In this document: positions 1-29,736 of the stretch, in pieces | How the letters are laid out: the number at the start of each line of letters is the position of its first letter | How positions within the stretch are numbered: the stretch's first letter is position 1 | Assembly (NCBI GenBank): GCA_964529175.1 | Contig: CAZGVO010000006.1 | Span: 73,308 to 105,307 of the forward strand | Direction of reading: 5' to 3' | DNA from: an uncultured Bifidobacterium sp. | Lineage (GTDB): Bacteria > Bacteroidota > Bacteroidia > UKL13-3 | DNA length: 32,000 nt | The notes under the pieces: model-generated | Told to the model about the DNA's origin: nothing | Seen by the model: only the letters and a program-made list of their open reading frames with translations | Databases searched by the model: none | Program-made: the position numbers and the translations under genes

Positions 1-2736
1 AGTGTGTCGGCTGCTACAAGTTATTGGACTGGGGCAAATGGAACAGGTTCACAATTAACATCACTTTCTATTAGCGATTTATATTTAAACATAGGAAGTA
101 ATGTAAGCACTTCGGGTGATTTTACGCTTTCAAATGGTTCTAAGTTTATAGTTAACAACGGGGGTAACTTAACTATTGCAAGTGGGAATATAATTTCAGG
201 TACAATAGATGTAGAAAATGGCGGTACTTTAACTTTAAATAGTACATCTATTCCAACTTTAGGCACACTAGGTAGCACTAGTACTATAATATTTGGTGCA
301 AATGGCGCGCAAGCAGTTACTACCAAAAATTATGGTAACTTAACCCTTAGTGGAGGTAATACCAAAACCATAAGTGGAGCTGCTGCGGTGAGCGGAGCTT
401 TAACTATTAATGGTACTGTATTAGCTTTGGGAAGCAACAATTTAACTCCAACCACTTTAACTTTAGACGGTTTAGGAACTAAAAATGATTCATGGGGTTC
501 TACAGCTGGTTCAGCTAATTATAAAAATGTATCTTATTTTGGTGCTACTGGCACAGGAACAGTAACTCCTAGTAGCAATACTGCTGCAACAGCAAGTTTT
601 AGTAATATTGCTACAAGCCAAAGTATTAATTATGGAACAGCTACTGTTTCATTAAGTGGTAAAGTTGCATCTGGCTCTATTTATCCTACTAATGGTGAAA
701 CAGTATCAGTAACCATTAATGGAGTAGCACAAACTACTACCACCACCAGTGGAGATGGTTCATTCTCTATCAATTATACTACTAGCACTTTACCAGTTTC
801 TGCATCACCTTACACCATTACTTATGCTTATACAGGTTCTGCAAATGGTTTTTTAAAGGCAGCAAGCAATGAAACAAGCACAGCTTTAACCGTAAATGCA
901 GCTACTAACAACTGGGTAGGTGGAACAGGCAATTGGAGCAGTACAAGTAATTGGAGCTTAAGCAGATTACCTTCTGCCCTAAACGATAATATTGTTATTA
1001 ACAGCGGAACCCCTACTATGGATGCAGACTATATAGTTGGTGCTGGAAGAACATTGACCATTAGTGGTACAGGTAGCTTGGTAATTAATGCTGGTAAATC
1101 AATTACCATTGATGGAACAGCAGATTTTGGTGGTAAATCAGTTACGCTTAAATCAACTGCTGTTGCTTCTGGCTCAATTGGAAAAATAACAGGAACTTTA
1201 ACAGGTGCTACCAATGTAACAGTTGAACGTTTTATAACTGGTCAATCAATTAGAGGTAGATGGAGATTTTTATCTAGCCCTGTTCAAGGCCAAACAGTAG
1301 CCAATTGGATGAACAGTTTTTATGTAACTGGTCCTGGCGATAGCATAGCTGCTAATGCAGTTAATGGCTCTACTTTAGGAACTACCAATACCAATGGTTT
1401 TAATACCAATTATGCTAATATTTTATATCCATCATCTACCATGTCTTCGGATGTTAGAAGTGTTAAAACTACTTCAATTAGAGTGTATGACGAAACAGTA
1501 ACTACTGGAGGAATTGATGGCGGTTGGGGTAATATAACTACAGCTACTACGCTAGATGCTGGCAAAGGATTTAGAGCCTATATTAGAGGAGATAAAAATG
1601 CAGTAAATTCAGCCCAAACGCAATTAGGAACTAGTGCCAATGGCAATATACAAGGAAGTGTAAATATTACCTTGACAGGAACTCCTAACCAAGGCGAGGT
1701 AAATGCCAACCCTACCTTTACCAGTTCAGGAACATTGGCAAACGATGGTTGGAATTTATTAGGAAATCCTTACCCATGTTCGTACGATTTTGTGGCTCAC
1801 AGAAATGCAGGTAGTTCAGTATTTAGTAATATAGACCCAACTGTATATGTTTATAGTGGAGTAACAGGTGGTTATGTAAGTTTTAATGCATTATCAAACA
1901 CCAACTTAAATTTAGATAATGGTATTATTCCGGCAGGTGCAGGTTTCTTTGTTAAAGCCAATGCCGCTAATCCAGTGTTTAAATTTCAAGAAGCATATAA
2001 AACTACCAATAACCATGTAGGTACTGGTGTGCATAAAACAGCTAAAACCGATGAGTTTGGAATTAAATATTATAAAGATTCTACTGAAAGCGATTATATA
2101 GTAGTTAAACCTTACCAAGGTGCTACTATGAATGCTGAAAATTTAGATATTATAAAAGTGCAAAACGATAATTTAAACTTATCGGCTTATGGTGCAGATT
2201 CTATATTATTAAGTGCAAGTTTAATACCACCAGTAATAGAGGAAACAAGAGTAAAATTAAATGTAGAAGCTACTGCAATAGGCACTTATAATTTTGATTT
2301 TAAAAACATGGATAATTTCCAAAGCGATATTACAGTTCATTTATTTGATAGATATACCAACAAAACCATTGATGTTAGAAAAAATACTAAGTACACTTTT
2401 AGTATGGGGCCGGGTACCAATCAGTGGGGTAAAAACCGTTTTGAGTTAATTTTAAATATGGATAAAACAGGAATAAATGAGTTTAATGTATTAAACAAAA
2501 CCCAAATGTTGGTTTACCCTAACCCTGCTACCGATGTGTTAAACATTGATATTAGCAATAGCAGTTTCAAAAACTCAGAAATAGTGGTTTATAATATTTC
2601 GGGAACCGAAGTAATAAAAACCAATATGGCTAGCAATAGTGTACAATTGAACATTGAAACATTAAGCGCAGGAGTGTATTTTGTAAAAGTAAGTAACCAA
2701 AATGGTTTTAATAAAACAGTAAAATTTGTAAAATAG
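1..2736 (+). CDS. Large secreted cell-surface repeat protein, 5'-truncated by the window edge, with a T9SS (Por) type-A C-terminal sorting domain
   Basis: The frame is open from nt 1, so the GTG at 4 is only an ORF-caller start. Composition is Thr/Ser/Gly/Asn-rich beta-strand repeats. The last ~80 aa (MLVYPNPATDVLNIDI...GVYFVKVSNQNGFNKTVKFVK) fit the Bacteroidota T9SS CTD pattern. The last ~500 aa are clearly paralogous to the C-terminus of 4768..10788 (VERFxxG..RWRFLSSPVQ, GWNLLGNPYPC, NQWGKNRFELILN). Confidence 0.85.
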   Translation, partial: SVSAATSYWTGANGTGSQLTSLSISDLYLNIGSNVSTSGDFTLSNGSKFIVNNGGNLTIASGNIISGTIDVENGGTLTLNSTSIPTLGTLGSTSTIIFGANGAQAVTTKNYGNLTLSGGNTKTISGAAAVSGALTINGTVLALGSNNLTPTTLTLDGLGTKNDSWGSTAGSANYKNVSYFGATGTGTVTPSSNTAATASFSNIATSQSINYGTATVSLSGKVASGSIYPTNGETVSVTINGVAQTTTTTSGDGSFSINYTTSTLPVSASPYTITYAYTGSANGFLKAASNETSTALTVNAATNNWVGGTGNWSSTSNWSLSRLPSALNDNIVINSGTPTMDADYIVGAGRTLTISGTGSLVINAGKSITIDGTADFGGKSVTLKSTAVASGSIGKITGTLTGATNVTVERFITGQSIRGRWRFLSSPVQGQTVANWMNSFYVTGPGDSIAANAVNGSTLGTTNTNGFNTNYANILYPSSTMSSDVRSVKTTSIRVYDETVTTGGIDGGWGNITTATTLDAGKGFRAYIRGDKNAVNSAQTQLGTSANGNIQGSVNITLTGTPNQGEVNANPTFTSSGTLANDGWNLLGNPYPCSYDFVAHRNAGSSVFSNIDPTVYVYSGVTGGYVSFNALSNTNLNLDNGIIPAGAGFFVKANAANPVFKFQEAYKTTNNHVGTGVHKTAKTDEFGIKYYKDSTESDYIVVKPYQGATMNAENLDIIKVQNDNLNLSAYGADSILLSASLIPPVIEETRVKLNVEATAIGTYNFDFKNMDNFQSDITVHLFDRYTNKTIDVRKNTKYTFSMGPGTNQWGKNRFELILNMDKTGINEFNVLNKTQMLVYPNPATDVLNIDISNSSFKNSEIVVYNISGTEVIKTNMASNSVQLNIETLSAGVYFVKVSNQNGFNKTVKFVK

Positions 2737-2805
2737 ACGAAGTGGTCGTTGAGCGGAGCCGAAACGCACACTTCGTCTGAAAGCTTTCGGACTTTGCTCA
2801 GTGTC
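2735..2805. repeat. Intergenic GC-richer hairpin element (REP-like), member of a dispersed family
   Basis: Perfect 10-bp inverted repeat AGACGAAGTG (2735-2744) / CACTTCGTCT (2769-2778) around a 24-nt loop GTCGTTGAGCGGAGCCGAAACGCA. It is followed by the palindrome GAAAGCTTTC (2779-2788) and GCTCAGTGTC (2796-2805). The same motifs recur at 13354-13408, 15128-15178, 16183-16199 and 27016-27069. Confidence 0.6.
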
Positions 2806-2830
2806 TATTAACCATTAACTAATCAACAAG

Positions 2831-3019
2831 ATGAAAAATATAACAAAAATAATAATGGCAGTAGCCATAGTAGTAGCAGTAAGTTTTGCAGCTAATGCAC
2901 AACCAGGCAGTGGTTCTGGAGGATTTGATGATGAACCGCAAGATGTGCCAGTAGATGGAGGAATAGTACTACTAGCAGCAGCGGGAGCTGCCTATGGGTA
3001 TAAAAAATTGAAAAAGTAA
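2831..3019 (+). CDS. 62-aa mini-protein: Sec signal peptide, Gly-rich linker and a PEP-CTERM/GlyGly-CTERM-like tail (DEPQDVPVDGG, hydrophobic stretch, KKLKK); copy A
   Basis: MKNITKIIMAVAIVVAVSFAANA|QPGSGSGGFDDEPQDVPVDGGIVLLAAAGAAYGYKKLKK. A paralog at 10881..11069 differs in the tail only by synonymous changes. A strong terminator follows directly (3037-3071). Confidence 0.8.
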   Translation: MKNITKIIMAVAIVVAVSFAANAQPGSGSGGFDDEPQDVPVDGGIVLLAAAGAAYGYKKLKK

Positions 3020-3036
3020 ATTTCCTTAAAACAATG

Positions 3037-3071
3037 AGAGGCTATCTTTTAATTAAGATAGCCTCTTTTTT
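3037..3071 (+). terminator. Rho-independent terminator closing the adhesin/mini-protein unit A
   Basis: Perfect 12-bp stem AGAGGCTATCTT (3037-3048) / AAGATAGCCTCT (3055-3066), followed by a T run. Confidence 0.85.
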
Positions 3072-3208: not shown

Positions 3209-3454
3209 ATGTTACAAATAAAATACCTGTTCTTTTTTCTTGGAAGTTTTGCCATAGTATTTGTCAGTATTAATATTTTAAGAAAATTTACTAGTAAAAG
3301 GCAGTGTCCTTATTGCGGTAGTGCAACCGATTTAGAAAGAATAAAAAGTGCTTCTATTTTTAAATTAATACCTGCTATAAATGCCAAACACTTTGTTTGT
3401 TATAAATGTAATAGAAAGCATTACAGAATAGGTTCATCAGATTTAGATAAATAG
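3209..3454 (+). CDS. Small membrane-anchored zinc-ribbon protein (hypothetical)
   Basis: An N-terminal hydrophobic helix (LFFFLGSFAIVFVSINIL) is followed by two CxxC pairs (CPYC ... CYKC). I recognise no family. Confidence 0.4.
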   Translation: MLQIKYLFFFLGSFAIVFVSINILRKFTSKRQCPYCGSATDLERIKSASIFKLIPAINAKHFVCYKCNRKHYRIGSSDLDK

Positions 3455-3754: not shown

Positions 3755-4006
3755 TCGTTTTAGTCGTTGCATCATGATGTAATCAATAATTCGGGTTCGT
3801 TTTAGTCGTTACATGATGATGTAATCAATAATTCGAGTTCGTTTTAGTCATTGCATGATTATGTAATTAATAATTCGGGTTCGTTTTAGTCGTTACATGA
3901 TGATGTAATCAATAATTCGGGTTCGTTTTAGCCATTACATGATGATGTAATTAATAAATCGATACTATTTTAGCTATTACATCAATTTGCAATTGATTTT
4001 ACACCT
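3755..4006. repeat. Tandem array of ~6 copies of a 42-bp unit, each carrying an internal palindrome
   Basis: Units start at 3755, 3797, 3839, 3881, 3923 and 3965, an exact 42-nt period. The consensus is TCGTTTTAGTCGTTACATGATGATGTAATCAATAATTCGGGT, with an internal TTACAT-GATG-ATGTAA inverted repeat. The last unit is degenerate. Confidence 0.9.
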
Positions 4007-4767: not shown

Positions 4768-7700
4768 ATGATAACTAATGTTTTACAATTAAAAAACCAG
4801 CCTCCCACGCAAGGCAGAACTAGTATTTTTAAATACCTAAGCCTTTTGGCTATGGTACTATTTTTCGGATTGAACGGGGTGAAGGGGCAAACGTATAGCC
4901 AAATTACAACCTTAGTAGGGTTAGTTGATGGGGATTATTTGATAGTAGGAGATGGGGCTACTAATGATGGAATAATGTTGAACACTGTTGATGCAACACC
5001 CTATATTAACCGCACGACTGTAACTAACCCTGGTTCTTCAATAACAAGCGGTTTTACTTCGGCCAATGTTTTTCAGATAACAGTGGTCTCAGGTGATATT
5101 ACTATATACAACTCATCAGTTGGGTATGTTTCTTGGGGGCGTACTGGAAATACTGGAAATACTGCTAATTTTTTTAGTGGTACGGTTGCAAATTCTGAAA
5201 GATGGACTCCAACAGTTAGTAGCGGATTGTGGACATTGACTAATGTAGGAACAACCGCTAGAAGTTTACAGTGGAACAATTCTAACCCCCGATTTGCATG
5301 TTATACTAGCACACAAGTTAGGTTGAAACTTTATAAATTAGCCACTACAGCCCCACTTGCCCCAACAATTGGAACAATAACCCCAGGTAATCAACAATTA
5401 TCTGTAGCTTTTACAGCTGGTAGTGATGGCGGTTCTGCTATAACAACTTATAAATATTCAACAGACGGAGGAGCCACTTTTTTAACAAGACAAACTGGTA
5501 CAACTGCCTCTCCAATTATTATTACTACTTTATCATCAGATGGAACTACCCCACTTACAAATGGTGCAAGTTATAATGTTCAAATTAGAGCTGTTAATGC
5601 TATAGGAGATGGAACTGCTACCGCAAGCACGGCAGCTACTCCGTATACTACACCAAGTGCGCCTACTATAAATAGTGTAACCGCAGGAAACACGCAATTA
5701 TCGGTAGATTTTACTGCCAATGCTACAGGTGGTTCGGCTATTACTAATTACCAGTATTCAACAGACGGTGGCGCTACTTTTTTAAACCGACAAACAGGTA
5801 CAACTGGCAGTCCTATTGTAATTACAACTTTATCATCTAATGGTTCAACATCTTTAACAAATGGAGTAACATATGATGTACAAATAAAAGCTGTAAATGC
5901 TGCTGGAGCTGGCACAGCTTCTTCAACTGTGCAAGGAACTCCTGTGGCTCCTGTATCACCTACTTTAACTGTGTTGGGTTCATTAAGTGCTGTTAATACT
6001 ACTTACGGAACTGCTAGCGCTAGTCCCACAAGTTTTACAGTTAGTGGAGCTTCATTAACCAACGATATTGTAATTACTCCACCATCGGGTTTTGAGGTTT
6101 CAACTTCAATAGGTAGCGGTTACACAACAAGTTTAACATTAACTCAGAGTGGTGGAAGTGTAAGCACTACCACTGTTTATTTGCGTTTAGCTGCCACTAC
6201 TGGTTTTGGTACTTATAGTGGCAATATTGATGTAACAAGCACAGGTGCTGTTACTCAATCAGTAGCAACAGCAAGCAGTAGTGTAGCTAAAAAAGCATTA
6301 ACAATAACTGGAATAACAGTTGATAATAAAATTTATGATGGAACCACAACAGCTACTACTTCTGGCACAGCTGTGTATAGTGGGTTAGTAAATAGTGAAT
6401 CATTCACTGTTACTGATATAGTATCATTTGCTTTTGCAACCGCTTCAGTAGGTAATGGTAAAACCATTAACCAAACCGGAACATATACAGCGCCCTCGGT
6501 TAATTATTCAATAAGCCAGCCAACATTAACAGCTAATATTACAACAGCAACACCTCCAACTATTACACCTGCTTTAGGTACAACAGTTGATGGTTCATTT
6601 AACGTAACTTTTGTTGATGATGCTTTATGGCGTTCAGGCATTACAGGTATAACAGTTGGAGGAACAACATTAACTGCTGGTTATACTGTTTCTTCTGGCC
6701 AAATCGCTTTTAATCCAGCTGCATCAGTTCCTACTGGTTTATTACAAACGGCAGGTTCTAAAACAATTGTAGTTTCCTCAACAGGATATAGTAGCAATAC
6801 TTTTACACAAGCTATTGGAGTTGGAGCAACTACAAAATTAACTAATAACACAGCTCCTGCAGCCCCTGCCACCAATGGAGTGGTTTTAGCAACTCAGCCA
6901 AAGGTAAATATTACTGACCAATATGGTAATATTATTACAACTGATAATTCAACTGTAGTAACTGTAGCTGCCACGCAAGGTACTTGGACATTAGGGGGAA
7001 CTTTAACTGCAACTGCTGTAAATGGAGTAGCCTCATTTAGTGGGTTAACTGCTACAAGTGCTACAGCTATTACTGGTGCAAGTTTAGATTATACAGCTAC
7101 AGGTCTAGCCGGTTTTACATCTGCTACATTTAATATTCCTGCACCAGCACCAGCAAACGATTTGTGTGCAAGCGCAATTACATTAACTGTTGGCGCAGGT
7201 TCAACTGGTGGTAGTATGGATGGAGCAACCATGTCAAGTCCTTTTAACGATGATAATGATGTTTGGTTTAAATTTACAGCCACTTGTACTGGAACAGCAA
7301 CGGTTACTATTAGCACAACCAGTCAAGATATAGATTTAACGGCTTGGAGTACTTCGTGCCCTGCTGCCACTACTGGTAATATCGGAACAGGAGGAGGTAC
7401 TTCTTCTTTAACAACCGAAACACTAACAATTTCTGCAACTCAGGGAACAACTTATTTTGTTCGTGTTATTCATTATGCTGCTACTTCAGGTTCGGTTGCT
7501 GGTAGTTTTAACATTGCAGTTACTTCTTCAGTAAATTCTACTTTAGCTTTGGCTAATACAGGAACTCCAGCTGCAGGAAATATTTCAAATGGAACATCAA
7601 ATGTTACTTTATTTGGATTTAGCTTAACACCTTCGGCATGTAATAATATTAGCATTTCATCAGTTAGTATTACCACAGCAGGAACAGCAACAAGTTCAGA

Positions 7701-10700
7701 TTTATCAAATTTTAGATTATTATATGACGCAAATAGCAATGGAACTGCCGATGCCGGTGAAATTTCTTCACCAATTGGAACGGTAGCTAGTTTGTCAAAT
7801 CCTTTAGTTTTTTCTAGCTTAGCAGGTCAATCTTTTTCACCCTCTACTGTCAGAAGATACTTATTGATTGCCGATGTGGCTGCAAGCCCTACAGATGGTG
7901 TGACTTTTACTGGTTCATTATCAAATACAAATGTAACCTCAACAGCTACAGCAAGTTCCTCTGCAACTGGTAATGCACAAACTGTTATTATTCCAACTGT
8001 TCCTTTAGTTCCTACAATAAATTCAATAACTGGTGGTACAAATCAATTAAGTGTTGCTTTTACAGCAGGTGCTAATGGTGGAGCAAGCATTACTACTTAT
8101 AAATATTCAACAGATGGTGGAGCAACATTTAGAACAAGAGCTTCGGGATCTACTGCTTCTCCTTTAGTAATTACAACACTTTCATCTGATGGAACCACCC
8201 CATTAGTCAACGGAGTTACTTACGATGTACAAATTAGAGCAGTTAATTCGGTAGGAGATGGCGTTGCAAGCTCAACAACACAAGGTACACCAGTGCTGAC
8301 AAATACAACTGCAAAATTATGGAATTCTGCTGCTGGATCAGCATGGCTTACTTCAGGTAATTGGAACGGTGGTTTACCATCAAGCACTGAAGTTGCTCAG
8401 TTTGGTGGAAACCCAACCCCCGGCACAAGCGTTAATATTAATGGTGGTACAACAGCAATTTCGGCTATTGAGGTAACCAATTCAAGAATATTGAATTTGA
8501 CAATAGGCAATAATTCTGGTGGCGCAACTAATGGCACTCTAACCTTGAATGGAGGAGTTGTGAATAGTATAGAAAATATTATTATTAGAAATAATAGTGC
8601 TAATTTATTAACCTTACAAAATACTGGTTCTTCTGGAAGTGGTTCAAATACAATGAGTTTGGCTCTAGGAAACTCAACTAACAATATAATTAGTATTGAA
8701 GGTAATGGAGGTATTACTATTTCTTCTATAATTTCTGGTAGTTCAAGAAATTTAACTAAAATTGGCGCTGGTGCAGGTGTTTTAACATTAACTGGTGCAA
8801 ATACTTACTCAGGTATAACAACTGTATCAGCGGGTACTTTGCGCTTAAATAGGTCAGGAGGAACAACTATTCCTAATACAAACAATGTGGTTATAGATGG
8901 AGGAACTTTACAAGTAAGTAGTAATCAAACATTAAACGATTTAACATTAACAAGCGGCACTTTAATTATTGATGCAGGTGTAACTTTAACTATAAATGGT
9001 ACTATTACTAGAACTTCGGGTGTAATTAGAGGTTCTTCTACATCAAATTTGGTTATAACAGGTACATCAGGAACAATAGCTTTCGACCAAACAACACCAG
9101 GCACTACTAATTTACTTAGAAACTTAACCATTAGTGGTTCTGGTACAACTACATTAGGTAATGCATTAAACATAGTTGGTGGTTCGAGCGCAGGTATAGT
9201 AACAGTAGGAAGTGGTGCAACATTAGCAGCAGGAAATAACTTAACTTTAAAATCAGATGCAAACGGAACAGGTTCAATTGCTTCAAACAATAGTGGCTTA
9301 ACTTATATTACCGGTAACGTAACTGTAGAACGTTTTGTAAGTGGTGCAGGAAGAAGATGGAGATTTTTATCATCACCTGTTCAATCAGCAACTGTGGCTA
9401 ATTGGATGACATATTTTTACGTAACAGGTCCTGGCGATGGGGTAACTCTTGGAGTGCCAATGTCGACAGGCTGGCATGCCTCTAAAGCAAATATTGATTT
9501 TCCAAATAGTACTTTTGGTTCAGATCCAAGAAGTGTAAAAACCACTTCTATTAGAACTTACAATGAATCAGCAAGTGGTAATAATACCAATATTAATGCT
9601 GGTTGGGAAAATTTATCTGGTACAAATCAGGCTTTAACTCCTGGTCAAGGTTTTAGAGTATTTGTGAGAGGCGCAATAGGCACAACTGGTCAATTGGATG
9701 GTTCAGTAACTTCGCAGTCTTCAGTAATTTTAGCTTTAACAGGAGCAGTTAACCAAGGCGATGTTTCACCAACGATTACTAATAATACACAAGGTTGGAA
9801 TTTAATAGGAAATCCATATCCATGTGCTTATAATTTAAAAGCACAGTACGATGCAGCTCAAACTTCGAACATGAACAATATTGATGTAAATTATTACGTG
9901 TTTGACCCCAATACAAATGGCTATAAAGGGTATAATCCTGCAGCAAGTTCTGGCGCAGGTGCTGGAACGTTAACAAGTGGTATTATACCTTCTGGTACAG
10001 CATTTTTTATCCAAGCAACAGGCACACCAACTTTTGTTTTTAAAGAAACATTTAAAACCACTTCGGCACCTATTGCATTACACAAAAGTGCTTCAAATAG
10101 CGAATTCAGTATTAAATATTTTAAAGATTCAGCGGAAAGTGATGAGTACATTTTAAGCATGATGGGTACAGCTACTTTAAATAAAGATAGATATGATATT
10201 AGTAAATTAAGAAACGACAATTTAAATTTATCAAGCTATGGTGAAGATACATTACAGCTCATGTTATCGTCAATTCCTTTAGTAGATGGCGAAACACGCA
10301 TTAAATTAAATGTAGAAGCAACTCAAGTTGGAACCTACAAATTTGAGTTTAAAAACATAGAAAACTTTGATGCAGGAGTAAGTGTAAGTTTACTAGATAA
10401 ATACACCAATAAAACTACAAGTATAAAAGCCAATACGGTTTACAGTTTTGAAATGGGAGCAGGCGAAAACCAATGGGGTAAAAACCGCTTTGAATTGATA
10501 TTAAATGGAAAAGCTACAGGTGTAAATAATACCAATGCTGCAGAACAAGTAGCACAAATGTTGGTTTACCCAAATCCAGCAACAGATGTGTTAAACATTG
10601 ATATTAACAATGCTAACTTCAAAAACTCAGAGATTGTAATTTATAATATTTCAGGTACAGAAGTGTTAAGAAGCAATATGGCAAGCAACAGTGCTCAATT

Positions 10701-10788
10701 AAATATTGAAACATTAAGTGCAGGAGTATATTTTGTAAAAGTAAGCAACCAAAATGGCTTTAATAAAACAGTAAAATTTGTAAAATAG
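4768..10788 (+). CDS. Giant (2006 aa) T9SS-sorted mosaic adhesin-like protein: signal peptide, 3 FN3 modules, YDG domain, PPC-like domain, autotransporter-associated beta-strand (PATR) repeat, conserved pre-CTD region and T9SS CTD
   Basis: Signal peptide: FKYLSLLAMVLFFGLNGVKGQ. FN3-like modules of about 100 aa (..QLSVAFTAG.DGGS.ITTYKYSTDGGATF..........YDVQIRAVN..G.G) lie at about nt 5350-5645, 5645-5945 and 8000-8290. YDG motif: KALTITGITVDNKIYDGTT (about 6289-6350). PATR-like motif: LTKIGAGAGVLTLTGANTYSGITTVSAGTLRL (about 8751-8850). C-terminus: MLVYPNPATDVLNIDI...GVYFVKVSNQNGFNKTVKFVK. Confidence 0.92.
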   Translation: MITNVLQLKNQPPTQGRTSIFKYLSLLAMVLFFGLNGVKGQTYSQITTLVGLVDGDYLIVGDGATNDGIMLNTVDATPYINRTTVTNPGSSITSGFTSANVFQITVVSGDITIYNSSVGYVSWGRTGNTGNTANFFSGTVANSERWTPTVSSGLWTLTNVGTTARSLQWNNSNPRFACYTSTQVRLKLYKLATTAPLAPTIGTITPGNQQLSVAFTAGSDGGSAITTYKYSTDGGATFLTRQTGTTASPIIITTLSSDGTTPLTNGASYNVQIRAVNAIGDGTATASTAATPYTTPSAPTINSVTAGNTQLSVDFTANATGGSAITNYQYSTDGGATFLNRQTGTTGSPIVITTLSSNGSTSLTNGVTYDVQIKAVNAAGAGTASSTVQGTPVAPVSPTLTVLGSLSAVNTTYGTASASPTSFTVSGASLTNDIVITPPSGFEVSTSIGSGYTTSLTLTQSGGSVSTTTVYLRLAATTGFGTYSGNIDVTSTGAVTQSVATASSSVAKKALTITGITVDNKIYDGTTTATTSGTAVYSGLVNSESFTVTDIVSFAFATASVGNGKTINQTGTYTAPSVNYSISQPTLTANITTATPPTITPALGTTVDGSFNVTFVDDALWRSGITGITVGGTTLTAGYTVSSGQIAFNPAASVPTGLLQTAGSKTIVVSSTGYSSNTFTQAIGVGATTKLTNNTAPAAPATNGVVLATQPKVNITDQYGNIITTDNSTVVTVAATQGTWTLGGTLTATAVNGVASFSGLTATSATAITGASLDYTATGLAGFTSATFNIPAPAPANDLCASAITLTVGAGSTGGSMDGATMSSPFNDDNDVWFKFTATCTGTATVTISTTSQDIDLTAWSTSCPAATTGNIGTGGGTSSLTTETLTISATQGTTYFVRVIHYAATSGSVAGSFNIAVTSSVNSTLALANTGTPAAGNISNGTSNVTLFGFSLTPSACNNISISSVSITTAGTATSSDLSNFRLLYDANSNGTADAGEISSPIGTVASLSNPLVFSSLAGQSFSPSTVRRYLLIADVAASPTDGVTFTGSLSNTNVTSTATASSSATGNAQTVIIPTVPLVPTINSITGGTNQLSVAFTAGANGGASITTYKYSTDGGATFRTRASGSTASPLVITTLSSDGTTPLVNGVTYDVQIRAVNSVGDGVASSTTQGTPVLTNTTAKLWNSAAGSAWLTSGNWNGGLPSSTEVAQFGGNPTPGTSVNINGGTTAISAIEVTNSRILNLTIGNNSGGATNGTLTLNGGVVNSIENIIIRNNSANLLTLQNTGSSGSGSNTMSLALGNSTNNIISIEGNGGITISSIISGSSRNLTKIGAGAGVLTLTGANTYSGITTVSAGTLRLNRSGGTTIPNTNNVVIDGGTLQVSSNQTLNDLTLTSGTLIIDAGVTLTINGTITRTSGVIRGSSTSNLVITGTSGTIAFDQTTPGTTNLLRNLTISGSGTTTLGNALNIVGGSSAGIVTVGSGATLAAGNNLTLKSDANGTGSIASNNSGLTYITGNVTVERFVSGAGRRWRFLSSPVQSATVANWMTYFYVTGPGDGVTLGVPMSTGWHASKANIDFPNSTFGSDPRSVKTTSIRTYNESASGNNTNINAGWENLSGTNQALTPGQGFRVFVRGAIGTTGQLDGSVTSQSSVILALTGAVNQGDVSPTITNNTQGWNLIGNPYPCAYNLKAQYDAAQTSNMNNIDVNYYVFDPNTNGYKGYNPAASSGAGAGTLTSGIIPSGTAFFIQATGTPTFVFKETFKTTSAPIALHKSASNSEFSIKYFKDSAESDEYILSMMGTATLNKDRYDISKLRNDNLNLSSYGEDTLQLMLSSIPLVDGETRIKLNVEATQVGTYKFEFKNIENFDAGVSVSLLDKYTNKTTSIKANTVYSFEMGAGENQWGKNRFELILNGKATGVNNTNAAEQVAQMLVYPNPATDVLNIDINNANFKNSEIVIYNISGTEVLRSNMASNSAQLNIETLSAGVYFVKVSNQNGFNKTVKFVK

Positions 10789-10800
10789 ATAATAGTAAAT

Positions 10801-10840
10801 AGACCATGGACCATAGAAAGAAAAATATGGTCTATGGTTT
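10801..10840 (+). terminator. Stable hairpin between the giant gene and mini-protein B; possible partial terminator or attenuator
   Basis: 14-bp stem AGACCATGGACCAT / ATGGTCTATGGTTT (two G-U pairs) with a 12-nt A-rich loop. Only a short T stretch follows. Confidence 0.4.
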
Positions 10841-10880
10841 ACTTAATTAATAGACTAACTAAATTAACAAAACAAAGAAA

Positions 10881-11069
10881 ATGAAAAAGACAGTAAAATA
10901 TATAATGGTATTAGCTATAGCAACAGCAATTAGTTTTGCAGCACAAGCACAACCAGGCAGTGGAGGCGGAGGATTTGATGATGAACCACAAGATGTACCT
11001 GTAGATGGAGGCATAGTATTATTAGCAGCAGCAGGAGCTGCTTATGGTTACAAAAAATTGAAAAAATAG
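10881..11069 (+). CDS. 62-aa mini-protein, copy B (signal peptide plus PEP-CTERM/GlyGly-CTERM-like tail)
   Basis: MKKTVKYIMVLAIATAISFAAQA|QPGSGGGGFDDEPQDVPVDGGIVLLAAAGAAYGYKKLKK. Codons 30-62 are identical in protein to copy A but carry 11 synonymous nucleotide differences. Confidence 0.8.
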   Translation: MKKTVKYIMVLAIATAISFAAQAQPGSGGGGFDDEPQDVPVDGGIVLLAAAGAAYGYKKLKK

Positions 11070-16310: not shown

Positions 16311-16772
16311 ATGCCATTCATTAAAGTTTATATACATTTTGTTTGGAGTACTAAAAACAGAATTCCTTTTTTAAATAATAAAGAATTAAGAGTCAAGGTT
16401 TGGAATCACATAAAGGAAAATGCAAGAGAAAAAGGTATTTTTATTGATTTTATTAGCGGCTATTCCGACCATTGTCATTGTTTGATTTCATTAGGTTCCG
16501 ACCAAACCATTCAAAAAACAATTCAATTAATTAAAGGAGAATCATCTTTTTGGATTAACAAAGAAAATCTGATTGATGAGTCTGTTTTAAACAAATATGA
16601 TTCAAAATTTGAATGGCAAGATGAATATTTTGCTGTGTCTGTTTCTGAATCAATGTTAGATAAGGTCAGGAATTATATTAAGAACCAAGAGATTCACCAT
16701 CAAAACAAATTATTTCAAGAAGAATATGATGAATTTCTCTTAAAATATAATTTTCAAAAATTCAATGACTAA
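16311..16772 (+). CDS. IS200/IS605-family Y1 (HUH) transposase, RAYT-like (REP-associated tyrosine transposase)
   Basis: 153 aa. YIHFVWSTKNR opening, HUH motif DHCHCLI, and a catalytic-Tyr region FEWQDEYFAVSV. No tnpB follows, and REP-like hairpin units flank both sides. Confidence 0.85.
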   Translation: MPFIKVYIHFVWSTKNRIPFLNNKELRVKVWNHIKENAREKGIFIDFISGYSDHCHCLISLGSDQTIQKTIQLIKGESSFWINKENLIDESVLNKYDSKFEWQDEYFAVSVSESMLDKVRNYIKNQEIHHQNKLFQEEYDEFLLKYNFQKFND

Positions 16773-23653: not shown

Positions 23654-26404
23654 ATGAAAAAGTTTGTCCAGTTTTTGTTCCTAATTTTGGTAATTGCAAT
23701 TAATGCTAATGCCAGCAATATCAATAAACCTATATCTTCGCAATACGGTTTTATAGAAAACAAAGGACAAATAATTGATCAAAATAACAATCCAAACCCT
23801 AGTGTTTTGTACTTGTATAATGGCAATGGATTACGTGTGCAATTGCGAAAAGAAGGTTTTAGTTATGAAGTAATAAATACCATAAAAACGCCTAAAACCA
23901 TCATAGATAAAGTGCCTCATGGTAAGTTTGCTTCTCAAGTAGATTCGTTTGATATAACCTACCAAACACACAGAGTGGATATAAACTTTAAAGATGGAAA
24001 CAAAAATGCAGCACTAAAACCTTACCAACCTGCAAACGATTTTATAAACTACTACACCACAGGAACAAGTGAAGCAGGAGTAACCAATGTGCATCATTTT
24101 CAAAAAGTAGTGTACGAAAATGTGTATCCAAATATTGATATAGAATTTGTGTTGAACGATGCAGCTAACAAAGGGAAATTTAAATACAATTTTATAGTGA
24201 AACCCAATGGGAATTTGGCTGATATAAAACTAGCATTTTTAGGTGCAAACAGCACCAGTTTAAACCAAGCGGGTAATATATTAATAGAAACAACTTATGG
24301 AAACATAGAAGAAAATATTCCGTTAAGTTATGTTATAAATAATAACAATTCTCACAGCACCATCAAAGCTAATTTTACAGCACTTGACAATAATACTTAT
24401 GGTATAATAGCCGAAAACTATAACCATAACCAAACATTGGTAATAGACCCAACCAATTGGACTACTTATTACGGAGGGTCTAGTGTTGATTTTGGCTCAG
24501 GAATAGCAACGGATGCAACTGGTAATATATTAATAACAGGAAGCACAGGCACATTAGGACAGTCTGGCTCAACTAATGCAATAGCAACTGCTGGAGCACA
24601 CCAAACAACAATGGGTGGTGGTTCTGATGCTTTTATAGCCAAGTTTAATACAAATGGAATTATTCAGTGGGCTACTTATTATGGGGGGAGTGGTGATGAT
24701 TACGGTGATGGAATAGCAACAGATATCAATGGAAATGTAATAATAACAGGAGAAACTAGATCAAGCAATGCTATAGCAACTGTTGGAGCACACCAAACGG
24801 TATTTGGTAGCAGTATTTCAAGCAGTGATGCTTTTATAGCTAAGTTTGATAGCAGTGGAGTAAGACAATGGGCTACTTATTATGGAGGGAGTAATAATGA
24901 TAAAGGAAGTGGTATTGCAACAGATGCCAGTGGGAATATAATAATAACAGGGACAACTTCATCAACAAATGCTATAGTCACCGTTGGAGCGCACCAAACA
25001 ACTTTGGGGGGAGTTCCAGGATTTAATGGAGATGCTTTTGTTGTGAAGTTCAATAGCAATGGCGTAAGGCAATGGGCTACTTATTATGGAGGGAGTAATT
25101 CTGATGAAGGAAACGGAATAACAATAGATGTTGGAGGAAATATTTTAATAACAGGGTCAACTTTTTCACTAAATGCAATAGCAACTGTTGGAGCATACCA
25201 AACAGTGCTTGGTAGCAGCAGTAGCATGGGCGTTTATGATGCTTTTATAGCCAAGTTCAATAGTAATGGCGTAAGGCAATGGGCTACTTATTATGGAGGA
25301 AGTGATAATGAATTAGGAAATGGAATAGCAGCAGATGCCAATGGGAATGTTATTATTACAGGTCAAACAAGATCAAGCAATGCCATAGCAACTGTTGGAG
25401 CACACCAAACGGTATTTGGTAGCAGTAGTTCAAGCAATGATGCTTTTATAGCCAAGTTTAGTAGCAATGGATTAATGCAATGGGCTACTTATTATGGAGG
25501 GAGTCTTGAGGATAATGGAAGAGGAGTAATAACGGATGCCAATGGGAATGTACTGATAATTGGATTTACTAAATCAAGCAATGCAATAGCAACGATTGGT
25601 TCACGTCAATCAATATATGGCGGAGGAAATTATGATGCTTTTATAGTCAAGTTTGATACTAATGGCGTAAGGCAATGGGCTACTTATTATGGTGGGAGTT
25701 TTGAAGATAATGGAAGAGGAATAACAAAAGATGCCAATGAGAATATTATAATAACAGGATGGACTGCATCAACTAATGCCATAGCATCAATTGGTGCATA
25801 CCAAACATCTTTCGGTGGGGGCTTTGATGCGTTCATTGCTAAATTCAATTCCAACGGAACTTTACCAATAAAACTCATTTCATTTAATGCAACTTTAGTA
25901 AACGAAAAAGTAAATTGTATTTGGGAAACAGCATCAGAAATTAACAATGATTATTTTACCGTAGAAAGAAGCAAGGATGGCAATGGTTTTGAAGCTGTTG
26001 GAAATATAAAAGGACAAGGAAATTCAAACAGCAATATTCGTTACAGTTACACTGATAATAATCCTTTTAGAGGCATTAGTTACTACCGTTTAAAGCAAAC
26101 AGATTTTGATGGAAAATACACTTATAGCGAAATAAAAAAGGTAGGATTGGATAAAGAATTGGCGTCTAAAATTTCATTGTATTATGAAAATAATAATCCA
26201 ATAATTTCAATCAGCTCATTGGTTGAAAACAAAGTTGCTATTGAACTTATTAACTTGAACGGGATAAAGTTATTTACCAATGAACAGCCAATAATTAAAG
26301 GTGAAAATACTTTTGCTATTGATGGAAATATAACTCCAGGTTTGTATTTATTAAAAGTACAAATGGAAAATGAAGTGAAGTATTTTAAAGTTTGGATGAG
26401 GTAG
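23654..26404 (+). CDS. T9SS-sorted protein with a seven-repeat SBBP beta-propeller
   Basis: Signal peptide present. There are seven ~65-aa repeats W[AT]TYYGGS..D.G.GIA.D..GN..ITG.T.S.NAIAT.GA.Q......DAFI.KF...G (nt ~24458-25865). The C-terminal tail ...GLYLLKVQMENEVKYFKVWMR fits a T9SS CTD. Confidence 0.85.
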   Translation: MKKFVQFLFLILVIAINANASNINKPISSQYGFIENKGQIIDQNNNPNPSVLYLYNGNGLRVQLRKEGFSYEVINTIKTPKTIIDKVPHGKFASQVDSFDITYQTHRVDINFKDGNKNAALKPYQPANDFINYYTTGTSEAGVTNVHHFQKVVYENVYPNIDIEFVLNDAANKGKFKYNFIVKPNGNLADIKLAFLGANSTSLNQAGNILIETTYGNIEENIPLSYVINNNNSHSTIKANFTALDNNTYGIIAENYNHNQTLVIDPTNWTTYYGGSSVDFGSGIATDATGNILITGSTGTLGQSGSTNAIATAGAHQTTMGGGSDAFIAKFNTNGIIQWATYYGGSGDDYGDGIATDINGNVIITGETRSSNAIATVGAHQTVFGSSISSSDAFIAKFDSSGVRQWATYYGGSNNDKGSGIATDASGNIIITGTTSSTNAIVTVGAHQTTLGGVPGFNGDAFVVKFNSNGVRQWATYYGGSNSDEGNGITIDVGGNILITGSTFSLNAIATVGAYQTVLGSSSSMGVYDAFIAKFNSNGVRQWATYYGGSDNELGNGIAADANGNVIITGQTRSSNAIATVGAHQTVFGSSSSSNDAFIAKFSSNGLMQWATYYGGSLEDNGRGVITDANGNVLIIGFTKSSNAIATIGSRQSIYGGGNYDAFIVKFDTNGVRQWATYYGGSFEDNGRGITKDANENIIITGWTASTNAIASIGAYQTSFGGGFDAFIAKFNSNGTLPIKLISFNATLVNEKVNCIWETASEINNDYFTVERSKDGNGFEAVGNIKGQGNSNSNIRYSYTDNNPFRGISYYRLKQTDFDGKYTYSEIKKVGLDKELASKISLYYENNNPIISISSLVENKVAIELINLNGIKLFTNEQPIIKGENTFAIDGNITPGLYLLKVQMENEVKYFKVWMR

Positions 26405-29034: not shown

Positions 29035-29736
29035 ATGAAAAAAATATACTTTTCAGTAATTAGTACGTTATTATTTTTAGGAGCACAAGCTCAAATATCG
29101 TACGGTTTTGACTATAAAGAAAACTACGAAAGTTTTACCAATAAAGATGCAGGTTCTGCTATAACAATTGCATTGTATAATGCTAACCAAGATAGCACCA
29201 CGCGCCCTTACTCAGCTATTTTATCGGTAATTGACAATACAACAAAACCTAGTCTAAACGCAATTAATAAAACACATTTTGATATGCCTGCTCAGCAAAA
29301 AGTTGAGTTTTTACCTGGCCAAAAAGGGTATAGAAATATCATTAATGTACCAATTAATCCAATTGCCGACCCTGTATTTTGGGGACAAAGAGTTTTTGAA
29401 TTAAATTTAGGAACTTTAGAAGGTTTTGCAGTGGGTAATTTAGTTAATGGGCACGAGTATTTTACTGTAGTAATTGATTACGATGGTAGTAAAATTGGTG
29501 TTCCAAGAGTAAATAAAACCATGTTTACTATTTACCCTAACCCAAGTTCAAATAATATTTACGTTACTGGGGTTGAGTGCCAAAGTATTCAAATTTTAGA
29601 TTTAATGGGTAAAGTTGTTTTAGACCAAAATTTACCAAGTAATCAAATTAGTATTGAAACATTGCCAGCTGGTATTTATGTTTTAAATGCCATGAGCGAT
29701 AAAGGATTGGTTACTCAAAAAATTGTTAAACAATAA
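29035..29736 (+). CDS. Small secreted protein with T9SS C-terminal sorting domain
   Basis: Signal peptide (LLFLGAQAQ). C-terminus FTIYPNPSSNNIYV...LPAGIYVLNAMSDKGLVTQKIVKQ. Confidence 0.7.
   Translation: MKKIYFSVISTLLFLGAQAQISYGFDYKENYESFTNKDAGSAITIALYNANQDSTTRPYSAILSVIDNTTKPSLNAINKTHFDMPAQQKVEFLPGQKGYRNIINVPINPIADPVFWGQRVFELNLGTLEGFAVGNLVNGHEYFTVVIDYDGSKIGVPRVNKTMFTIYPNPSSNNIYVTGVECQSIQILDLMGKVVLDQNLPSNQISIETLPAGIYVLNAMSDKGLVTQKIVKQ

Follow-up and report, generated by a model that had tools for sequence, protein, structure and literature searches.

Gene organization of the locus

The window, by which we mean the whole 32-kb stretch of DNA analyzed, contains two genes of 62 codons, here called mini genes A and B. 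Each lies downstream of a gene for a surface protein with a type-A C-terminal domain (CTD) of type IX secretion (T9SS). These upstream proteins are referred to as cargos A and B. Coordinates of all features are listed in Table 1. The stop-to-start gap is 94 nt between cargo A and mini gene A and 92 nt between cargo B and mini gene B. The exact protein of copy B is present in a public protein collection (P0001). The exact protein of copy A gave no match in the 15-billion-protein collection in which copy B, from the same contig, was found. Because of this absence, copy A was probably never called as a gene in the source annotation.

Table 1. Features of the two cargo–mini gene units and their surroundings, in window positions.
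Feature	Position	Strand	Remarks
Cargo A	4..2736	+	Paralogue of cargo B; 5' end cut by window edge
Cargo A module	about 1051..2511	+	
Cargo A T9SS type-A CTD	2512..2733	+	
RNA hairpin, cargo A–mini A spacer	2741..2809	+	-28.1 kcal/mol, z = -2.4
Mini gene, copy A	2831..3019	+	62 aa plus TAA stop; tail as copy B from residue 30 on
Copy A PID-CTERM domain, residues 39-62	2945..3016	+	NCBIfam NF046080, 42.3 bits, cutoff 26
Intrinsic-terminator-like hairpin and T-run	3036..3067	+	17 nt past stop of mini gene A
Cargo B	4768..10788	+	2006-aa surface protein; fn3, YDG, Shr-like and PATR repeats (Pfam, NCBIfam), then module and CTD
Cargo B unannotated module	about 8908..10563	+	By homology
Cargo B T9SS type-A CTD	10564..10785	+	
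RNA hairpin, cargo B–mini B spacer	10800..10841	+	-23.1 kcal/mol, z = -6.5; TAGACCATAG...CTATGGTCTATGG motif family
Mini gene, copy B	10881..11069	+	62 aa plus TAG stop; MKKTVKYIMVLAIATAISFAAQA then QPGSGGGGFDDEPQDVPVDGGIVLLAAAGAAYGYKKLKK; listed ORF and codon comparison
Copy B signal peptide, codons 1-23	10881..10949	+	Lys-rich n-region, hydrophobic core, A-Q-A; by inspection
Copy B mature segment, codons 24-39, QPGSGGGGFDDEPQDV	10950..10997	+	Short, acidic, Gly-rich; sole 'passenger'
Copy B PID-CTERM domain, residues 39-62	10995..11066	+	NCBIfam NF046080, 42.5 bits, cutoff 26
Copy B motif P-V-D-G-G	10998..11012	+	
Copy B hydrophobic helix IVLLAAAGAAYGY	11013..11051	+	13 residues
Copy B basic cluster KKLKK	11052..11066	+	Stop codon next
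Predicted four-helix membrane protein, 198 aa	11186..11782	+	Downstream of copy B; no Cys, no family match

The tails of the two mini-proteins differ only at synonymous sites

The initial annotation had reported 11 synonymous and no non-synonymous differences between the two genes in codons 30-62, different stop codons, and about 10 replacements in codons 3-22. A codon-by-codon recount reproduced the list of tail differences exactly. The 11 differences were single-base changes at codons 36, 39, 40, 44, 47, 48, 51, 54, 56, 57, and 62, all synonymous, and no replacement was found. The stop codons were TAA in copy A and TAG in copy B. Codons 3-22 carried exactly 10 replacements (codons 3, 4, 5, 7, 10, 11, 14, 15, 17, and 22) and 2 synonymous changes. 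Between the two ranges, codon 28 had a synonymous change, and codon 29 encoded Ser in copy A and Gly in copy B.

Nei–Gojobori counts for the tail (codons 30-62) were dN = 0 (0 of 75.3 sites) and dS = 0.725 (11 of 23.7 sites). For the signal-peptide core (codons 3-22), dN and dS were 0.41 and 0.30, respectively. From the fraction of synonymous sites, the binomial probability that all 11 random tail substitutions would be silent was about 1.5e-7, and none of 200,000 simulated substitution sets gave an all-synonymous tail. Fisher's exact test of head versus tail gave p = 8.7e-5. Among 160 subfamily gene pairs with similar synonymous divergence, the median was 6 amino-acid differences in the same 33 codons, and only one other pair had a tail with zero differences. 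A requirement that both copies suit one and the same enzyme or partner within a cell would explain why the tails are perfectly identical.

The synonymous-only pattern, together with 127 small homologues and 1285 representative clusters (50% identity), bore out the proposal that these tiny ORFs are genes. Both 62-residue genes are real and strongly selected.

Constraint in the close subfamily

Selection was then tested, as the initial annotation had asked, on aligned codons from 31 distinct close-subfamily genes. The ratio dN/dS for codons 30-62 was 0.13 across these relatives and 0 within the window, indicating strong purifying selection on the tail, as had been claimed from the window pair. 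Among the 31 relatives, dN/dS was 0.60 for the signal-peptide core, 0.12 for codons 21-31, 0.056 for FDDEPQDV (codons 32-39), 0.062 for PVDGG (codons 40-44), 0.156 for the helix (codons 45-58), and 0.14 for KKLKK (codons 59-62). The tightest constraint fell on A-Q-P-G and F-D-D-E-P-x-D-V-P-x-D-G-G-I, with the membrane helix and KKLKK looser.

Residues A23, Q24, P25, G26, F32, D34, E35, P36, D38, V39, P40, D42, G43, G44, I45, L48, and G56 were invariant in the 31 relatives. Each was written by several codons except F32, which was TTT throughout. The constraint also reached upstream of the curated domain described below, to A23-Q24-P25-G26 and F32-D-D-E-P36, and helix residues were partly exchangeable between genomes.

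Two of the earlier points called for refinement. DVPVDGG and KKLKK had both been proposed for a check of invariance. DVP[VIL]DGG was indeed fixed, whereas KKLKK varied: only K58 and K59 were nearly fixed, and many relatives had longer basic tails. The signal peptide had been said to diverge freely. It did diverge between the two copies, with its 10 replacements, but a family dN/dS of 0.6 shows that it is not entirely free.

The tail matches the curated PID-CTERM domain

The domain matched by both tails is the NCBIfam family PID-CTERM (Table 1). All 127 homologues (127/127), 56-97 aa in length, carried PF28310 (PID_CTERM) in precomputed annotation, and some NCBI records bear that name. A scan with a local copy of Pfam gave no match for either mini-protein. 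The C-terminal layout is tripartite: the motif P-[IVL]-D-G-G is followed by a hydrophobic helix and then by a basic cluster, an arrangement shared by 56 relatives. An N-terminal Sec signal peptide was recognized by inspection. Signal peptidase I is predicted, from the sequence, to cut after A-x-A and before the invariant Gln24. Such a cut fits the Q-rule described for signal peptidase I substrates in Bacteroidetes (PMC5837995). The mature stretch between the two signals is acidic and Gly-rich and has about 16-20 residues.

Across 57 loci, 56 mini genes were found, with products of 47-97 aa. A profile searched exhaustively against 1.84 billion representatives returned 1285 clusters, and 143 of the best 150 were at most 100 aa long, with a bias towards small proteins since the search profile spans the signal peptide. 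Neither window copy contains Cys, so the Cys at +1 of a bacterial lipobox is absent and a lipoprotein reading is ruled out.

The tail is a curated PID-CTERM sorting tag, the presumed target of exosortase X (XrtX). Because the sorting-signal family is already curated, the feature is not new in kind. We found no paper on PID-CTERM, XrtX, or PF28310, and no experiment on PID-CTERM or XrtX; the family is curated but, as far as we found, apparently unpublished.

Two distant PID-CTERM proteins (P0376 and P0381, 131-138 aa) have an in-frame, zinc-ribbon-like N-terminal extension (CxxC...CxxC) before a signal-peptide-like segment. In the window, an 81-aa ORF downstream of copy A (3209..3454) has a hydrophobic N-terminus and a CxxC...CxxC motif.

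The mini genes are paired and duplicated with a T9SS cargo

Cargos A and B were 51% identical over their 587 C-terminal residues. Both matched Por_Secre_tail (TIGR04183/PF18962) with 56.8-57 bits, against cutoffs of 23 and 27. At the DNA level, positions 2062-3018 aligned with 10111-11068, and the alignment ended at the stop codon of the mini gene. Because the duplication ends there, the duplicated unit, which the initial annotation had not noted, consists of the cargo tail, the spacer, and the mini gene.

The pairing was then counted for those mini genes in related loci whose upstream sequence extended over 1500 nt or more. An upstream protein with both the module (about 550 aa) and Por_Secre_tail was present for 25 of 25 close mini genes and for 12 of the 20 distant genes. 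In nearly all cases, 50-270 nt separated the mini gene from a T9SS type-A cargo upstream, and Pfam confirmed Por_Secre_tail in 14 of 15 distant upstream proteins. Eight distant loci had no module cargo; XrtX lay downstream of the mini gene in six of them, and neither partner was found in L040 and L051. Full trios in the order cargo, mini gene, and XrtX were found in L041, L047, and L059. The pairing persisted at mini-protein identities of 33-50% and module identities of 23-29%, in several Bacteroidota families.

As internal controls, the window has two further T9SS cargos, at 23654..26404 and 29035..29736. They have no module, and no mini gene follows them. In the reverse direction, a mini gene followed one of the three distant module homologues checked, indicating that the association is not reciprocal.

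The cargo module matched no Pfam or NCBIfam family. Its AlphaFold model had a pLDDT of 85.4 and no neighbor in the PDB (best E = 0.16, TM at most 0.13). The sole BFVD match was an unannotated homologue mislabelled 'hemin binding protein'. The CTDs of the mini-linked cargos (L005-L037 and the window) form a distinct subtype of unusually high conservation that ends in NGFNKTVKFVK. Their mean pairwise identity was 66%, versus 48% for the adjoining module, and they were only 18-40% identical to the CTDs of the two other T9SS cargos in the window.

Two single cases, both from metagenome assemblies, bear on the dependence between the two genes. In MAG Jr-23apr18-60, a mini gene with no T9SS cargo upstream (L035, 10019..10192) has decayed: its Gln24 codon is TAA and its motif reads LVDGG. 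The same MAG retains four intact cargo-linked copies. In a 2-kb Logan contig (SRR22752035; L066, 193..1422), a 409-aa protein (P0314) combines an Ice_binding domain and a beta-helix with the first portion of the module; after FYVTGPGDG it passes directly into SDGFGDDPQDAPVDGG... and a PID-CTERM tail. Its module part is 48% identical to residues 1378-1558 of cargo B. P0314 is either a natural fusion of cargo and mini gene or a deletion product. The decay of the orphan and the fusion are hints of functional dependence between mini gene and cargo.

The coupling of the mini gene with T9SS is reported in no paper that we found. Its co-duplication with a specific T9SS surface protein hints at a link between two bacterial protein-sorting systems.

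Arrays of PTL_trimer (PF26696), some with Peptidase_S74, were often seen after the cargo–mini pair (L005, L006, L010, L016, L019, L020, L022, L025, L027, L053, L063, and L064). In L064, the array lay directly after the cargo. These arrays resemble fiber proteins, and the window has none.

Hairpins and repeats in the spacers

Both spacers in the window can fold into strong RNA hairpins (Table 1). A strong spacer hairpin was found in 24 of 34 related loci, with a median z of -4.7 (spacers of L005-L037). Many of these hairpins are formed by a common motif, TAGACCATAG...CTATGGTCTATGG, whose first letters are the TAG stop of the cargo. Others have the palindrome GTCATTGCGAGG..GATTGCTTCG, which resembles a REP or MITE element.

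At 16311..16772, the plus strand encodes an IS200/IS605-type Y1 transposase (NF033573, 62.8 bits) that also matches REP-associated tyrosine transposases, though less well. A relationship between this transposase and the palindromic spacer repeats is possible. Between mini gene A and cargo B lie 1.7 kb of non-coding DNA, with a tandem array (3755..3961) of 4.9 copies of a 42-bp unit (90% matches); every unit includes the near-palindrome TTACATGATGATGTAA.

Exosortase X is encoded beside the mini gene in distant loci

ORF clustering of the related loci revealed a protein of about 175 aa directly 3' of the mini gene in nine loci (L039, L041, L043, L047, L048, L049, L055, L059, and L061). Six of the nine proteins were scanned against NCBIfam. 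The best match of all six was NF046081 (exosortase X); three passed its cutoff of 170 bits (200, 181, and 178 bits), and the other three scored 115-123 bits. All six passed the generic exosortase/archaeosortase signature. Cys, Arg, and His residues were invariant in the XrtX proteins adjacent to mini genes. Several of these loci also encode polysaccharide export functions, namely a Wzc-like tyrosine kinase, a Wza-like protein, UpxY, and an ABC-2 transporter.

PID-CTERM is presumed to be the XrtX sorting signal, given the consecutive accessions (NF046080 and NF046081) and the adjacency of the genes. The suggestion that the tail is a recognition motif thus gained support: it matches a curated sorting domain whose presumed enzyme is encoded next to it in related loci.

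No exosortase was detected in the 32-kb window by NCBIfam and Pfam scans of all ORFs of at least 100 aa. A home-made HMM run on every ORF of at least 90 aa in the 57 loci found no XrtX outside the nine adjacent cases. An exosortase lay beside none of 32 close-subfamily mini genes (0/32). Among the best 120 of 537 XrtX homologues, none was on a contig known to bear a close-subfamily mini gene.

The 198-aa membrane protein found 3' of copy B recurs after the mini gene in six loci, with homologues at the same position in L007, L012, L029, L032, and L034. We do not consider it the sorting enzyme, as it occurs in only six loci and has no Cys, no conserved His, and no family match. Its place in the system is uncertain.

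Proposed model and alternative explanations

We propose that the mini-protein is a precursor made of a Sec signal peptide, an acidic Gly-rich stretch, and a PID-CTERM signal, that it is processed by XrtX, and that it acts with the upstream T9SS cargo. We regard this model as a whole as reasonably probable. The precursor would be exported by Sec and cut after A-x-A, exposing Gln24, as its sequence and the Bacteroidetes Q-rule suggest. The C-terminal helix would serve as its inner-membrane anchor and leave KKLKK on the cytoplasmic side. Exosortase X, a membrane cysteine transpeptidase, would then recognize P-[VIL]-D-G-G on the membrane's outer face, remove the helix, and transfer the peptide of about 18 residues to an envelope acceptor. 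Family membership, gene adjacency in related genomes, and the analogy with rhombosortase and archaeosortase A point to this step. The product would cooperate with the upstream T9SS type-A cargo, most plausibly as a tether or adaptor; the association of the two is genetic, and the type of interaction is our inference.

In Flavobacterium johnsoniae, deletion of xrtF, which encodes a related exosortase, or of its partner gene gave the same phenotype pattern as deletion of porU or porZ (PMC10936215). The substrates of XrtF are unknown (PMC10936215). The phenotypes independently suggest that Bacteroidota exosortases and T9SS surface attachment are connected.

A more specific version of the model is a two-ended adaptor. 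XrtX would join the C-terminus of the peptide (P-x-D) to a lipid or polysaccharide anchor. The conserved Gly-rich N-terminal part (QPGS-GGGG/TTGG-FDDEP) would be bound by the upstream cargo or would act as the acceptor when PorU removes the cargo CTD. We consider this version speculative and rather improbable. If it were true, a peptide tether of the adhesin family's own would replace A-LPS. Type IX secretion and exosortase sorting would then be directly connected at the molecular level for the first time, and the role of XrtF-type enzymes in Bacteroidota might become apparent.

The main rival to the XrtX-processed precursor is that the mini-protein stays uncleaved. Once its signal peptide is removed, it would be a single-pass inner-membrane accessory of about 39 residues, dedicated to the upstream T9SS cargo as an escort, a retention factor, or a regulator. 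The lack of an exosortase in the window and in every close-subfamily locus fits this reading, as do the conservation of the helix and K58-K59 themselves and the fact that the pairing and co-duplication with the cargo hold without an adjacent XrtX. However, the strongest constraint lies on P-x-D-G-G and the preceding residues and not on the helix, and the score of the tail exceeds the cutoff of a curated model for sorting signals by a wide margin. In addition, distant members with the same tail sit directly beside XrtX, three of them in cargo–mini–XrtX trios. On balance, we think an uncleaved accessory unlikely, though it deserves to be kept in mind.

The mini gene might also encode a secreted signaling or RiPP-like peptide unrelated to its T9SS neighbor, with the adjacency being inherited synteny. 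It is a very small precursor with a conserved core, and the close-subfamily loci come from related freshwater Bacteroidota, so part of the synteny could be inherited. This is very improbable, as the pairing holds in several Bacteroidota families at the low mini-protein (33-50%) and module (23-29%) identities given above and survives duplication within genomes. A RiPP in particular was rejected: the window mini-proteins have no Cys and no Ser or Thr pattern typical of RiPP cores, and no peptide-modifying enzymes recur in the neighborhoods.

Recent duplication or gene conversion, instead of selection on the protein, deserves hardly any weight as the cause of the identical tails: both copies do lie in one genome inside a duplicated segment, but the count of synonymous sites refutes it, because 11 synonymous differences in 33 codons (dS 0.73) exclude recent homogenization of the tail, the spacer and signal peptide are strongly diverged, and a third gene from another genome (L032) has the same tail at pS 0.39-0.63.

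Significance

To our knowledge, no substrates or products of Bacteroidota exosortases are known. A sortase substrate with almost no passenger, genetically tied to one family of T9SS surface proteins, gives a testable route to what these enzymes make. The same cassette is a route to how Bacteroidota other than Porphyromonas tether T9SS cargo, and to the role of the 550-aa module. What the initial annotation flagged is a sorting signal under purifying selection, with a signature of textbook quality; its context is what could matter. The added value is the conserved cargo–mini(–XrtX) cassette, which opens the function of Bacteroidota exosortases to experiment. Ferruginibacter sp. SUN002 (L056), an isolate, has a cargo–mini pair beside a polysaccharide export locus and is a possible experimental system.

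Comparison with known systems

The closest known system is PID-CTERM/exosortase X (NF046080, NF046081; PF28310). The mini-proteins share with it a tail above the cutoff, the same architecture, and XrtX beside the mini gene in related loci. A difference is that the window has no XrtX. The subfamily also has an extra invariant AQPG...FDDEPxDV upstream of the modelled domain, and its link is in every case to T9SS cargo, not to XrtX.

The PEP-CTERM/exosortase A (EpsH) system was described by Haft 2006 and Haft 2012, as cited in PMC7468200. Similar to that system, there is a tripartite C-terminal signal and a polytopic membrane enzyme with conserved Cys, Arg, and His, and distant mini loci have polysaccharide export neighbors (Wzc-like, Wza-like, and UpxY). 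Linkage to an exopolysaccharide locus, which is characteristic of PEP-CTERM, is absent in the window and present at several distant loci. Unlike PEP-CTERM, the mini motif is P-[IVL]-D-G-G and not P-E-P, and no PEP-CTERM model matched. The mini substrates are almost all without a passenger domain (143 of the best 150 representatives at most 100 aa, from the same size-biased search), and the mini genes are found in Bacteroidota, coupled to T9SS cargo. The mini family thus differs from other exosortase signals in its motif, its near absence of a passenger, and its coupling to T9SS cargo.

In GlyGly-CTERM/rhombosortase and PGF-CTERM/archaeosortase A, the logic is analogous: the enzyme removes a C-terminal helix and links the newly formed end to a lipid-type moiety. 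For rhombosortase, the attached group contains glycerophosphoethanolamine, according to the summary in PMC7468200. Rhombosortase belongs to an unrelated enzyme family. The substrates known for both systems are enzymes of full size or S-layer proteins, whereas the mini product would be a peptide of about 18 residues.

T9SS cargo with a type-B CTD can have a dedicated downstream PorP/SprF-like gene, as in sprB–sprF. The arrangement resembles the one described here, with a cargo gene followed by a small cargo-specific partner gene, and with the pair duplicated together. The differences are that the mini-linked cargo has a CTD of type A (TIGR04183), not type B, and that the mini partner is a sortase-signal peptide of 62 aa with a single helix, whereas PorP/SprF-like partners are outer-membrane beta-barrels of about 300 aa.

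The last comparison is with PorU sortase and A-LPS attachment (PMC7468200). Under our proposal, the likeness would be that transpeptidation onto an acceptor in the envelope anchors T9SS cargo at the surface. The linking-sugar pathway has been paralleled with exosortase-associated genes (PMC7468200). That the mini-peptide itself could be the acceptor for PorU is only a possibility, if the most interesting one.
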